A DNA stretch of 10,106 nt from a virus (taxonomy: Duplodnaviria > Heunggongvirae > Uroviricota > Caudoviricetes). The stretch is taken from the IMG/VR virus record IMGVR_UViG_2526164690_000014; one strand, 5' to 3'. The notes under the pieces were generated by a model. It was given only the letters and a program-made list of their open reading frames with translations. It was not told the DNA's origin and made no database searches. This document shows positions 192 through 8,318 of this stretch, one piece after another. Both the position numbers and the translations under genes were made by a program. Each line of letters opens with the position of its first letter. Positions within the stretch are counted from its first letter, which is position 1.

Positions 192-716
192 GCCGCCCTC
201 CTGACGCCCTGCCCGATCGCCATCAATGCCGCTTTGGATACAGTAGTAAACATTCGTCGAGGACTGATGAACGGTCGCCAAATCAGCAGCATGGAGCCTT
301 TGCTGTTTCCCTTCTTCTCCAGCCCTGTCGATGGTTCGATAAAATTAATCCGTCCATCAGTGATGATGCGAACTTCGTCAACACTCTCCAGAGCCTTGCT
401 GAACCATCCGACTGACATAATCCTCTGGCACAAGCATCACTACCGTCTGTCGCTGTTGTATGCACTGCTCAGCGGCTTTTTCCACCACGGCCTGATATTG
501 CTGTACGGTTGGGTTATTCCAGATTGCACCGTGGCTTACCCACTCAGAATTGAGCGCGTCGTCGGCCTCAGTTAGCCAGTGAGCGCACAGAGCATTTTTG
601 TCGCTCGCTGCTGAATCCAGCCAGAATCCAAACTCAATATCCAGCGCATCAAAAAGCCAAAGCGGCGTTTGCCAGCAGTCCTTGTCGTGTGCTGGTGTAT
701 TTGATTTGATAGTCAT
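188..716 (-). pseudogene. Phage DNA N6-adenine methyltransferase (Dam-like), interrupted by a +1 frameshift near 417-420
   Basis: N-terminal half (716 down to about 420, MTIKSNTPAHDKDCWQTPLWLFDALDIEFGFWLDSAASDKNALCAHWL...VVMLVPED) and C-terminal half (about 415 down to 188, ...[49 protein letters not shown]...) lie in different minus-strand frames but read as one protein of the prophage methyltransferase family. One extra base in the plus-strand run gacATAAtcc separates them. Confidence 0.6.
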
Positions 717-1164
717 GCAGCCCTACCTTTTCGTTGTGACCATTCATACTCTCGCCGGGAGTCATCACTCCACCGCACGTTGCGCTCTGAGCCGAACCAA
801 AACATGATTTCGATAAGCTCAGTCATGCTGGCCTTTCGCATTTTGCTGGTACGCACGCCAAGCATGACAACGCCACCATCGATACCAGGCACACTTCGTT
901 GCTCCAGTTTTTTGGTCTTAAGCCACAGGGCAGTGAACAGGTCTTTCCAGTCCTCCGGCGCAAGTCTCTGTCCATGCCAAAGCACCTGACGTGATACGTC
1001 CTGCAATAACGCCAACATAAGGCGGTTTTGAGGATTGCTCCGCTTTGGTCTTTAATGTGGACTTCGTGAGGTGACTTGTCGTCGATCGGAAGTGAGAGTA
1101 TTGCGTCTATGGCGTTGTTTCTGATTGCTTCGTTGCGAAGCATGTATATTTGCTTCATTGTCAC
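713..1164 (-). pseudogene. ninB: NinB-like (Orf family recombination mediator), interrupted by a -1 frameshift near 1050-1057
   Basis: N-terminal part MTMKQIYMLRNEAIRNNAIDAILSLPIDDKSPHEVHIK (frame of 1164) aligns with lambda NinB residues 1-37. C-terminal part ...RSNPQNRLMLALLQDVSRQVLWHGQRL...VRWSDDSRREYEWSQRKGRAA (frame of 1018) aligns with the rest of NinB. The join is in the A/T run at plus-strand tctttaat. Confidence 0.6.
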
Positions 1165-1165
1165 C

Positions 1166-1372
1166 TCAACTCACAAAACGCCACGCCATTTTTGCTACAG
1201 CGACAGGCGCAACACCGATAATCACCCACAGGAAAATGCTACCGAAAAGCACACCAACCAGGTCTTTACCTTCGCCTACCAGCCGGACAAAACTGCTGGC
1301 AACCACAATGAACGTCGCCACCATCCACATAGCACCGAGAATCCTCAATGCAGAAAAAATCAACTCAACCAC
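1166..1372 (-). CDS. Small hydrophobic protein (68 aa, two predicted transmembrane helices), function unknown
   Basis: ORF starts with GTG 7 nt after a GGGGGAGAG Shine-Dalgarno, immediately downstream of the tR2-like terminator, where lambda has the ninB start. Translation MVELIFSALRILGAMWMVATFIVVASSFVRLVGEGKDLVGVLFGSIFLWVIIGVAPVAVAKMAWRFVS has two hydrophobic stretches; I do not recognise a homolog. Confidence 0.45.
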   Translation of the reverse strand: MVELIFSALRILGAMWMVATFIVVASSFVRLVGEGKDLVGVLFGSIFLWVIIGVAPVAVAKMAWRFVS

Positions 1373-1389
1373 GATTTACTCTCCCCCAA

Positions 1390-1419
1390 ATAAAAAGGCC
1401 TGCGATTACCAGCAGGCCT
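1390..1419 (-). terminator. tR2-like rho-independent terminator downstream of ren
   Basis: On the minus strand an 8-bp stem AGGCCTGC/GCAGGCCT with an 8-nt loop is followed by TTTTTATTT; this matches the position and sequence of lambda tR2 as I recall it. Confidence 0.65.
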
Positions 1420-1444
1420 GTTATTAGCTCAGTGATGTAGATGG

Positions 1445-1735
1445 TCATCTTTTAACTCCATATACCGCCAATACCCGTTTCATCGCGGCACTCTGGCGAC
1501 ACTCCTTAAAAATTAGGTTCGTGCTCATCTTTCCTTCCCGTTCTTCCTTGGTAGCAAACCGGTAATACACCGTTCGCCAGACCTTACCTTCGATAACCAG
1601 AAGACCTGCCCGTGCCATTTTAGCCGCGGCCTGATTTATGCTGGTTACTGTTGCGCCTGTTAGCGCGGCAACGTCCGGCGCACAGAAGCTATTATGCGTC
1701 CCCAGGTAATGAATAATTGCCTCTTTGCCCGTCAT
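1445..1735 (-). CDS. ren: Ren protein (96 aa)
   Basis: Translation MTGKEAIIHYLGTHNSFCAPDVAALTGATVTSINQAAAKMARAGLLVIEGKVWRTVYYRF... is near-identical to lambda Ren as recalled; ATGA overlap with the P stop. Confidence 0.9.
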   Translation of the reverse strand: MTGKEAIIHYLGTHNSFCAPDVAALTGATVTSINQAAAKMARAGLLVIEGKVWRTVYYRFATKEEREGKMSTNLIFKECRQSAAMKRVLAVYGVKR

Positions 1736-3039: not shown

Positions 3040-3085
3040 CTGATGAATCCCCTAATGATTTTGGTAAAAATCATTAAGTTAAGGT

Positions 3086-3154
3086 GGATACACATCTTGT
3101 CATATGATCAAATGGTTTCGCGAAAAATCAATAATCAGACAACAAGATGTGCGA
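3086..3154 (-). ncRNA. IS10 RNA-OUT antisense RNA (approximate ends)
   Basis: Placed from established IS10 biology (pOUT transcript antisense to the transposase 5' end). In the sequence, CACATCTTGT (3091-3100) and ACAAGATGTG (3142-3151) form the expected inverted repeat spanning the transposase start codon region. Confidence 0.45.
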
Positions 3155-4355
3155 ACTCGATATTTTACACGACTCTCTTTACCAATTCTGCCCCGAATTA
3201 CACTTAAAACGACTCAACAGCTTAACGTTGGCTTGCCACGCATTACTTGACTGTAAAACTCTCACTCTTACCGAACTTGGCCGTAACCTGCCAACCAAAG
3301 CGAGAACAAAACATAACATCAAACGAATCGACCGATTGTTAGGTAATCGTCACCTCCACAAAGAGCGACTCGCTGTATACCGTTGGCATGCTAGCTTTAT
3401 CTGTTCGGGCAATACGATGCCCATTGTACTTGTTGACTGGTCTGATATTCGTGAGCAAAAACGACTTATGGTATTGCGAGCTTCAGTCGCACTACACGGT
3501 CGTTCTGTTACTCTTTATGAGAAAGCGTTCCCGCTTTCAGAGCAATGTTCAAAGAAAGCTCATGACCAATTTCTAGCCGACCTTGCGAGCATTCTACCGA
3601 GTAACACCACACCGCTCATTGTCAGTGATGCTGGCTTTAAAGTGCCATGGTATAAATCCGTTGAGAAGCTGGGTTGGTACTGGTTAAGTCGAGTAAGAGG
3701 AAAAGTACAATATGCAGACCTAGGAGCGGAAAACTGGAAACCTATCAGCAACTTACATGATATGTCATCTAGTCACTCAAAGACTTTAGGCTATAAGAGG
3801 CTGACTAAAAGCAATCCAATCTCATGCCAAATTCTATTGTATAAATCTCGCTCTAAAGGCCGAAAAAATCAGCGCTCGACACGGACTCATTGTCACCACC
3901 CGTCACCTAAAATCTACTCAGCGTCGGCAAAGGAGCCATGGGTTCTAGCAACTAACTTACCTGTTGAAATTCGAACACCCAAACAACTTGTTAATATCTA
4001 TTCGAAGCGAATGCAGATTGAAGAAACCTTCCGAGACTTGAAAAGTCCTGCCTACGGACTAGGCCTACGCCATAGCCGAACGAGCAGCTCAGAGCGTTTT
4101 GATATCATGCTGCTAATCGCCCTGATGCTTCAACTAACATGTTGGCTTGCGGGCGTTCATGCTCAGAAACAAGGTTGGGACAAGCACTTCCAGGCCAACA
4201 CAGTCAGAAATCGAAACGTACTCTCAACAGTTCGCTTAGGCATGGAAGTTTTGCGGCATTCTGGCTACACAATAACAAGGGAAGACTTACTCGTGGCTGC
4301 AACCCTACTAGCTCAAAATTTATTCACACATGGTTACGCTTTGGGGAAATTATGA
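3147..4355 (+). CDS. tnp: IS10 transposase (402 aa)
   Basis: ORF MCELDILHDSLYQFCPELHLKRLNSLTLACHALLDCKTLTLTELGRNLPTKARTKHNIKRIDRLLGNRHLHKERLAVYRWHASF... matches the Tn10/IS10 transposase as recalled, inside the IS10 inverted repeats. Confidence 0.95.
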   Translation: MCELDILHDSLYQFCPELHLKRLNSLTLACHALLDCKTLTLTELGRNLPTKARTKHNIKRIDRLLGNRHLHKERLAVYRWHASFICSGNTMPIVLVDWSDIREQKRLMVLRASVALHGRSVTLYEKAFPLSEQCSKKAHDQFLADLASILPSNTTPLIVSDAGFKVPWYKSVEKLGWYWLSRVRGKVQYADLGAENWKPISNLHDMSSSHSKTLGYKRLTKSNPISCQILLYKSRSKGRKNQRSTRTHCHHPSPKIYSASAKEPWVLATNLPVEIRTPKQLVNIYSKRMQIEETFRDLKSPAYGLGLRHSRTSSSERFDIMLLIALMLQLTCWLAGVHAQKQGWDKHFQANTVRNRNVLSTVRLGMEVLRHSGYTITREDLLVAATLLAQNLFTHGYALGKL

Positions 4356-4368
4356 GGGGATCTCTCAG

Positions 4369-4377
4369 AACTTGGCT
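4369..4377. repeat. 9-bp target site duplication (AACTTGGCT), right copy
   Basis: Same 9-mer as 3031-3039, directly abutting the IS10 inside end. Confidence 0.9.
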
Positions 4378-4640
4378 TCATTGCACCGTTTGACAGGTAA
4401 CTTTGTAATCTCGCTAAGTTGAGAATCGGTGATTCTGTCCATTGGTTTATTCCACCCATAGGTTTTACGCAGAATGGCAAGCAGCACTTTAAACTGTCGC
4501 TTGGTCAGATCTGCGCCTGAATAAGCCTCAATCAGCATATTTGATAGTCTGGCGTAACCATCATCGAGATCTGCCACATTACGCTCCTGTTCGGCAAAGT
4601 TACCTCTGCCGAAGTTGAGTATTTTTGCTGTATTTGTCAT
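4369..4640 (-). pseudogene. O: Replication initiator O, 5' portion (N-terminal 90 codons), truncated by IS10
   Basis: MTNTAKILNFGRGNFAEQERNVADLDDGYARLSNMLIEAYSGADLTKRQFKVLLAILRKTYGWNKPMDRITDSQLSEITKLPVKRCNEAK matches the lambda O N-terminus; AGGAG Shine-Dalgarno upstream. The last codon and stop of the track ORF (4365..4640) are IS10 terminal bases, not native O sequence. Confidence 0.85.
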
Positions 4641-8079: not shown

Positions 8080-8153
8080 GCGCGGCGTTACCGCATACCA
8101 ATTACGCTTCACTCGAGGTCGTTTTTCGTTATGTAATAAATAAGGAGCACACC

Positions 8154-8318
8154 ATGCAATATGCCATTGCAGGGTGGCCTGTTGCTGGCTGCCCTTCCGA
8201 ATCTTTACTTGAACGAATTACCCGTAAATTACGTGACGGATGGAAACGCCTTATCGACATACTTAATCAGCCAGGAGTCCCGAAAAATGGATCAAACAAT
8301 TATGGCTATCCAGACTAA
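8154..8318 (+). CDS. cIII: CIII protein (FtsH/HflB inhibitor, 54 aa)
   Basis: AAGGAG Shine-Dalgarno; [54 protein letters not shown] matches lambda CIII as recalled. Below the size cut-off of the supplied ORF track. Confidence 0.85.
   Translation: MQYAIAGWPVAGCPSESLLERITRKLRDGWKRLIDILNQPGVPKNGSNNYGYPD

Follow-up and report, generated by a model that had tools for sequence, protein, structure and literature searches.

orf68, a widespread gene that opens the nin region of lambdoid prophages and encodes a predicted two-helix membrane protein

The window analysed here is a stretch of 10,106 nucleotides from a tailed phage (Caudoviricetes; IMG/VR record IMGVR_UViG_2526164690_000014). It is a lambdoid prophage in reversed orientation, with the pR (rightward) operon on the minus strand and the minus-strand gene order cro, cII, O (split by IS10), P, ren and orf68. 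The last of these, an open reading frame (ORF) of 68 codons, is the first full-length cistron of the nin region. We propose that orf68 is a genuine nin gene, that it encodes a membrane hairpin, and that its product is a delayed-early accessory protein which would act within the membrane. For this account as a whole we estimate a probability of about 0.6, and its parts differ in strength as described below.

The orf68 gene, its family and its distribution

The gene model involves three features, given in the coordinates of the window:

1166..1372, minus strand: orf68, 68 codons with a GTG start and a TGA stop, product a predicted two-pass membrane hairpin, PHROG 1165
1379..1387, minus strand: Shine-Dalgarno (SD) sequence GGGGGAGAG, 6 nt (TAAATC) 5′ of the GTG, which lies 8 nt from the GGAG core
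1388..1419, minus strand: tR2 intrinsic terminator, stem AGGCCTGC/GCAGGCCT and then TTTTATTT, from a terminator scan and the RNA fold centroid

Thus, the 5′ flank of orf68 consists, in order, of TTTTATTT, GGGGGAGAG, TAAATC and GTG. A preliminary description of the locus, made from the letters of the sequence, had reported an ORF with a good ribosome-binding site at 1166-1419. The ribosome-binding site is borne out by the SD GGGGGAGAG 6 nt from the GTG, and the ORF is real. However, that range spans the coding sequence (CDS), the SD and tR2 together, and the ORF itself occupies only 1166-1372 on the minus strand, with GTG as its start. The RefSeq CDS that covers orf68 is WP_000229807.1 ("hypothetical protein"). 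Because the window contains 75 ORFs of at least 40 aa, the length of orf68 is weak evidence in itself, and it is conservation that decides. On that evidence, orf68 is almost certainly a real, translated gene.

The whole of orf68 matched the hidden Markov model of PHROG 1165 (126.9 bits, E = 7.5e-37), with residues 1-68 aligned to positions 1-68 of the 68-position profile. The preliminary description could assign the protein to no family; it does belong to one, albeit a family without known function. Members include HK022 gp58, HK75 gp43, mEpX1_049, orf69 of Stx2-converting phage 86 and SPN9CC_0027. They are annotated as "hypothetical", "phage protein" or "membrane protein", and the PHROG label is "unknown function". 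In every phage examined the family occupies the same place behind tR2 and the SD, and orf68 differs from these members in nothing material.

The results of species distribution showed that orf68 is common. Many genomes of Shiga toxin-producing Escherichia coli (STEC) contain the 401-nt stretch 1100-1500 with 100% identity; one of them is O26:H11 11368, where the Prokaryotic Genome Annotation Pipeline calls orf68 as WP_000229807.1. The exact protein is found on at least 995 contigs of E. coli and other Enterobacteriaceae, and close relatives are present in E. albertii, Shigella and Salmonella. In tblastn searches, orf68 was found in 107 phage records. The carriers include HK022, HK75, HK629/630/633, HK620, mEp213/235/X1 and H-19B, together with Stx1a and Stx2a converting phages and P22-like Salmonella phages. 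Among complete E. coli genomes, 416 of 5426 (~8%) had a full-length A-type copy (the allele group of the window, see below) and 529 had any match. A single genome may have up to 4 orf68 places, and the gene is very common in prophage-rich STEC genomes. orf68 is an accessory (dispensable) gene, because lambda and P22 (gene table, PMC4837284) are without it and only about one-fourth of the phage records matching the tR2 region (107/419) carry it.

Three allele groups, at identities of 45-55%, could be distinguished: the window belongs to A, HK620 (~55% identity) to B and SPN9CC (46%) to C. All three have 68 codons, the same start position (GTG in A and B, ATG in C) and the stop. Between the groups, synonymous divergence (dS) was saturated (1.1-2.1) and the ratio of nonsynonymous to synonymous divergence (dN/dS) was 0.21-0.42. 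For codons 2-45 of the window and HK620, there were 19, 16 and 30 substitutions at codon positions 1, 2 and 3, respectively. We counted 199 homologue clusters in a set of 5.8 billion proteins, and 113 of the 120 listed were exactly 68 aa long. An exhaustive HMMER search of 1.84 billion representatives gave 16 matches, with a few new homologues of 63-68 aa at 30-41% identity; the other matches were truncated or frameshifted copies and a repetitive 375-aa protein, P0130, which is likely spurious. W16, W49, G53, K61 and W64 are invariant across all homologues, the distant ones included. In addition, V32, G35, D37, F43, P56 and V57 are near-invariant, and position 10 is always K or R. Lack of conservation in related prophages had been named as the finding that would refute the gene; orf68 is kept in lambdoid phages of both E. 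coli and Salmonella, and the refutation fails.

The alleles have a mosaic structure. The 3′ 63 nt of orf68 (1166-1228) are 90-100% identical between A and B, but identity is no more than ~50% over the first 140 nt. The third codon positions behave in the same way, with 5 differences in 23 in the 3′ part and 30 in 44 in the 5′ part. Thus, the sequence that varies, which encodes TM1 (TM, transmembrane helix), the turn and the beginning of TM2, lies between two conserved stretches, tR2 with the SD on one side and the 3′ end on the other. This pattern suggests recombination joints.

The same uneven identity could be read in another way, namely that orf68 is a non-functional hydrophobic ORF kept open by constraint on the DNA, for example as a recombination "linker" between mosaic modules. 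This reading could also call on the complementary antisense frame, which is open in 9/9 sequences tested, and on the original annotations of HK620, H-19B and NC_002166, which omit orf68. However, dN/dS values of 0.2-0.4 at saturated dS speak for selection on a protein. Furthermore, the length is exact at 45-55% identity and similar (63-68 aa) at 30-41%, residues are invariant, the codon-position pattern favours the sense frame, and the place after the replication genes is kept in a distant lambdoid locus. We consider the non-gene reading extremely improbable and already largely refuted.

The antisense frame deserves a separate remark. In the window it is an ORF of 105 aa at 1076-1393 on the plus strand, and it is open because the sense strand has no TTA, CTA or TCA codons; by a rough estimate, the chance of this across the lineages is a few per cent. 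Both plus-strand ORFs of the region (1076-1393 and 1125-1427) were rejected as coding, as substitutions fall most often at what would be the antisense first codon positions. In addition, the ORF at 1125-1427 has stops in allele groups B and C.

The start codon was another point to be settled. HK630_052 and mEp235_046 are annotated as CDSs of 159 nt, in which the product would have 52 aa from the ATG at codon 17 and only part of the first helix. In favour of this, both Met15 and Met17 are in frame, and allele groups A and B have GTG as their first start. However, the strong SD is correctly spaced for codon 1 and not for codon 17, and in group C codon 1 is an ATG at the same position. Meanwhile, the part 5′ of codon 17 is open and similar (basic residue 10, W16) even at 30-41% identity, Met15 is not conserved, and Met17 is replaced by Ile in groups B and C. 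Taken together, the spacing of the SD, the conservation of the first 16 residues and the Ile at position 17 in B and C make the 52-aa product very improbable.

The alignment with lambda (NC_001416) agrees that an ORF stands between tR2 and ninB where lambda has nothing, as the preliminary description had put it, with one nuance. The window is identical to lambda from the ren stop through the tR2 hairpin and the SD. The identity ends just past GGGGGAGAG, where lambda continues with GGAAGTC-ATG (ninB) and the window with TAAATC-GTG (orf68). Thus, in an alignment of lambda, HK75 and mEpX1, the SD GGGGGAGAG that precedes orf68 is the one used by ninB in lambda. The ninB that follows orf68 is an HK620-type allele and not that of lambda, so orf68 is not a clean insertion relative to lambda. 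By this alignment the difference is a module swap with its joint at the SD. tR2 and the SD are identical, and stand directly before orf68, in 11/11 phage and prophage loci examined. The position is kept whether the upstream gene is ren, a DnaB-type P or HK022_57, and whether ninB or another ORF lies downstream. No correlation was seen between allele group and downstream neighbour, since A and B alleles both precede ninB and an "MDESRKQ" ORF. In another lambdoid early-right operon, a distant homologue is placed between the O and DnaC genes, which precede it, and NinX and NinF, which come later.

Predicted topology and expression

The preliminary description spoke of a small membrane protein with two helices, and hydropathy and structure modelling agree on this. 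In the Kyte-Doolittle profile there were two segments, at ~11-31 and ~38-60, with 19-residue means above 1.6, and the grand average of hydropathy was 1.53. AlphaFold2 (AF2), run on orf68 with 23 homologues, gave a helical hairpin (H2-33 and H38-67) with a mean predicted local distance difference test score (pLDDT) of 90.5. On these models, orf68 is very probably an integral two-pass membrane protein.

Charges were compared over 31 homologues. A single basic residue is conserved among the N-terminal 10, the last 8 residues have a net charge of +1 to +3 and are almost never acidic, and the turn V-x-x-G-K-D is net acidic. From the positive-inside rule applied to this charge pattern, the topology is probably N-in/C-in with a periplasmic turn of 5-6 residues. 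In the model, a short cytoplasmic N-terminus would end in the conserved K/R at position 10. It would be followed by TM1 (about residues 11-31), a tight acidic periplasmic turn V32-x-x-G35-K-D37 and TM2 (about 38-60), and a basic cytoplasmic tail of 8 residues, K61-x-x-W64-R, would close the protein. TM1 had a hydrophobic moment of 0.24 and TM2 one of 0.06, and neither helix contains a conserved polar residue. The protein is thus predicted to be almost wholly buried in the membrane, without an obvious pore-lining face.

The start codon of orf68 lies 15 nt from the U-tract of tR2, and a simple consensus search found no sigma-70-like promoter in 600-2000 on either strand. The gene is tightly packed, with a stop/start overlap with the mini-ORF NinA on one side and a 7-nt gap to ninB on the other; tight stop/start packing is typical of nin operons (PMC8022706). 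Because orf68 has no promoter of its own and lies 15 nt behind tR2 inside the pR operon, it would be a delayed-early gene that is silent in the lysogen. Transcription would come from pR only, after N-mediated antitermination (read-through) at tR2, and the protein would be made in lytic growth and be off in the repressed prophage, where cI is bound at oR. Judged from the layout, N-dependent delayed-early expression of orf68 is likely.

What the protein may do

The similarity searches gave no functional name. Pfam returned no family for orf68 at E ≤ 10, with holin, Hok/Gef and GhoT/OrtT models in the library. For seven homologues at E ≤ 1 there was again no family, and only sub-threshold hydrophobic matches to T4SS_pilin and DUF6773 were seen. 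No NCBIfam model was above threshold for orf68, and the PADLOC-DB defence models gave 0 families for orf68 and five distant homologues at E ≤ 1. A profile search of the 5.8 billion proteins gave 240 matches, and none of the 120 listed had a functional name. A sequence profile search of the PDB gave 0 matches. Foldseek found nothing at E ≤ 0.001 in BFVD and PDB; what it returned were generic helical hairpins, for instance the c subunit of ATP synthase. In addition, an Rfam search of the whole window at E ≤ 1 found nothing in 1100-1450.

We suggest that orf68 would act within the bilayer itself, where its helices would contact those of a partner embedded in the membrane, and not as an aqueous pore. 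The reasons are that both helices are without a polar face and that the invariant residues (Trp, Gly, Pro and Lys) are of the kind that serves packing and anchoring at the interface. Together with lytic-only expression and a neighbourhood rich in genes with counter-exclusion or accessory tasks (ren, a Dam methylase and, in locus L019, a Lar-like gene), these properties lead us to guess at a modulator. Two roles can be imagined. First, the protein may close the inner-membrane route of DNA entry to a superinfecting phage during lytic growth, by a logic like that of T4 Imm. Second, it may neutralise a membrane-acting exclusion effector of the host or of a prophage. Such a specific role is tentative, and we regard it as possible but doubtful. 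A bolder version is that orf68 represents a new class of lytic-phase phage membrane micro-proteins acting purely in the bilayer, which may seal DNA entry after induction or, like a membrane equivalent of the anti-Rex ren, neutralise effectors of exclusion or abortive infection, maybe with the NinA peptide; this is distinctly unlikely.

T4 Imm blocks DNA injection by superinfecting phage (PMC11436027). The likeness to orf68 is one of logic only, that of a small membrane protein made early in the lytic cycle and not by the prophage. The two differ in phage type, and orf68 matches no family of Pfam, a library taken to include an Imm model.

A different possibility is that the protein damages the membrane. 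It would then oligomerise and permeabilise or depolarise the inner membrane, as a Hok/GhoT-like toxin, a holin- or antiholin-like timing factor, or an abortive-infection effector. Class II holins of lambdoid phages have about 68-71 aa and two TM helices in N-in/C-in topology; Hok/Gef (type I) and GhoT (type V) toxins are small, very hydrophobic inner-membrane peptides found in prophages, and GhoT has two helices. With 68 aa, two transmembrane domains and a probable N-in/C-in topology, orf68 resembles the class II holin (pinholin) S21-68 and GhoT, and in small size and hydrophobicity it resembles Hok/Gef as well. Its expression, doubly locked by repression of pR and by tR2, would fit a harmful product, but the same is true of every nin gene.

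However, the sequences do not support this relationship. The Pfam searches described above, with their holin, Hok/Gef and GhoT/OrtT models, gave no match for orf68 or the seven homologues, and an hhalign comparison of the family profile with the class II holin of the O26 prophage, a close relative, gave a probability of 2%. That prophage already has a holin beside its lysozyme gene, ~8.3 kb downstream. A holin belongs to the late lysis cassette beside the endolysin, whereas orf68 has its place in the early-right (nin) operon, with ren/tR2 before it and ninB behind it. The low moment of TM2 (0.06), the helices without a polar face or a conserved polar residue, and a weakly charged tail of 8 residues (only +2), in place of the long charged tail of holins, also differ from what is expected of a holin. 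As for the toxins, orf68 is embedded in the nin region and is without its own promoter, a long leader, an antisense promoter or RNA (the type I layout; no Rfam match either) and an adjacent antitoxin gene. A membrane-damaging effector is therefore unlikely.

Known superinfection-exclusion proteins suggest a further comparison. Morons classically carry their own promoter and terminator. If orf68 were a moron-like factor of lysogenic conversion or superinfection exclusion, it would be expressed from the prophage and block entry of phage DNA, as P22 SieA or HK97 gp15 do. It is an optional, horizontally mobile small membrane protein of temperate phages, very common in STEC with up to 4 places per genome, and the exclusion proteins of this kind that are known reside in the inner membrane (PMC10883804, PMC11436027). 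HK97 gp15 and P22 SieA are likewise optional inner-membrane proteins of temperate enterobacterial phages, according to passages of PMC3594210 and PMC10883804. However, morons are described in passages of PMC3594210 as independent transcription units, and orf68 does not have this layout. It is packed into the pR operon 15 nt from the U-tract of tR2, with overlapping or near-overlapping stops and starts. The terminator is upstream and not downstream, and the ninB start follows 7 nt past the orf68 stop. Furthermore, HK97 gp15 and P22 SieA are expressed by the prophage, whereas for orf68 no promoter-like site was found in 600-2000 on either strand and cI at oR should silence it; nor was any Pfam or PADLOC similarity found. 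We consider this reading improbable. The preliminary description had offered toxins, holin-like proteins and superinfection-exclusion factors as options, and the evidence speaks against the first two. In sum, the roles of toxin, holin and moron are disfavoured, and the account of a delayed-early accessory protein acting within the membrane is preferred.

Several points weigh against the preferred account. The predicted topology is built on hydropathy, the positive-inside rule and AF2. A promoter that is weak or not of the sigma-70 type could lie inside ren or P and have escaped the consensus scan. The modulator role is argued by analogy and from absent features (a polar face, a charged tail, a promoter of its own). 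The conserved Trp, Gly and Pro could serve only packing within the hairpin or homo-oligomerisation. In addition, small, very hydrophobic proteins can depolarise membranes without an obvious polar face, and literature searches by accession or locus tag, peptide string and topic found nothing on orf68, its expression, localisation or phenotype.

Neighbouring genes and meaning

Three genes adjoin orf68 in the window:

1365..1448, minus strand: NinA mini-ORF of 27 codons, MTIYITELITGLLVIAGLFIWGRVNRG, whose frame runs through the tR2 hairpin; distinct from orf68
1445..1735, minus strand: ren, the upstream gene, annotated as "protein ren" at the identical place in O26:H11 11368
713..1158, minus strand: ninB (HK620-type allele), the downstream gene, with its frame broken by a 1-nt deletion near 1050

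The tR2 hairpin itself lies at 1419..1396 and has 8 bp, 6 of them G-C, in both the terminator scan and the RNA fold centroid. The same hairpin is called "terminator tR2" in the HK620 annotation, and HK75 has a terminator annotated there.

NinA starts at an ATG that overlaps the ren stop (ATGA) and ends at a TGA that overlaps the orf68 start (GTGGTTGA). The same mini-ORF is annotated as NinA in HK630, HK620 and SPN9CC, and it is also known from P22 and lambda. We considered whether orf68 could be NinA itself and rejected this, because NinA is a separate ORF of 26-27 codons that is annotated apart from orf68 in HK630 and SPN9CC. The two are immediate neighbours which overlap by 8 nt, and for this reason "ninA" is shown under tblastn matches; orf68 has no nin name. 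The NinA product is itself a hydrophobic helix, stop/start-coupled to ren. In Salmonella prophages, NinA and orf68 are occasionally fused in frame into called ORFs of 93-94 aa, by two different indels in the G-run past tR2 (L017 2501-2785, GGGGG to GTGGTGG; L019 2501-2782, one G lost). AF2 on a natural fusion gave a pLDDT of 59 and a predicted template modelling score of 0.35, values that are uninformative on whether NinA packs against the hairpin.

On the other side of orf68, the ninB ATG lies 7 nt past the stop, and the ninB SD, GAGGTG, overlaps that stop. The 1-nt deletion at ~1050 is a frameshift relative to the intact 148-aa ninB of O26:H11 11368. Meanwhile, the Dam (N-6-adenine methyltransferase) gene in the 378-716 region has three 1-nt indels, at ~420, 487 and 510, relative to the same genome. 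These indels could reflect a decaying prophage or assembly errors at homopolymers. Unlike ninB and the methyltransferase gene, orf68 is intact and identical to that of O26:H11 11368.

An IS10 element occupies ~3040-4370, with a 402-aa transposase gene at 3147-4355 (plus strand) and an Rfam match to RNA-OUT at 3085-3154 (minus strand, 98.8 bits). It splits the replication gene O into fragments at 4365-4640 and 2430-2804 on the minus strand. The O gene of O26:H11 11368 is uninterrupted, so the present copy of the prophage is probably defective in replication. In addition, a lambda cIII thermoregulator element (RF01804, 88.5 bits) was found at 8141-8199 on the plus strand, upstream of and overlapping the cIII-like ORF. 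It is a known element and expected in such prophages.

Outside the window, a gene matching PF26207 (Phage_phiTE_015, function unknown) lies 0-3 genes from the orf68 homologue in 5/5 additional loci, including distant ones, at the following positions:

L014, 1600-1890: PF26207 gene
L015, 4189-4452: PF26207 gene
L016, 1287-1592: PF26207 gene
L017, 3006-3284: PF26207 gene
L019, 3003-3266: PF26207 gene

In Salmonella phages, a DUF7301 gene is directly downstream of the orf68 homologue, where in the window ninB follows.

orf68 is an already catalogued, widespread phage gene. The present result is a solid point of annotation and not a discovery, and it will be no surprise to a specialist. What is added here is a firm gene model with its start codon, a model of the topology, a set of invariant residues that could be mutated, and the expectation of lytic-only expression. 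Among the cistrons of lambdoid prophages that are unannotated or called "hypothetical", orf68 is one of the commonest, and its carriers include the Stx1 and Stx2 (Shiga toxin) converting phages of enterohaemorrhagic E. coli and the classic laboratory phages HK022, HK620 and H-19B. If the protein does control superinfection, host membrane function or sensitivity to exclusion at induction, it would bear on the spread of Stx phages and on the coexistence of multiple prophages in STEC.

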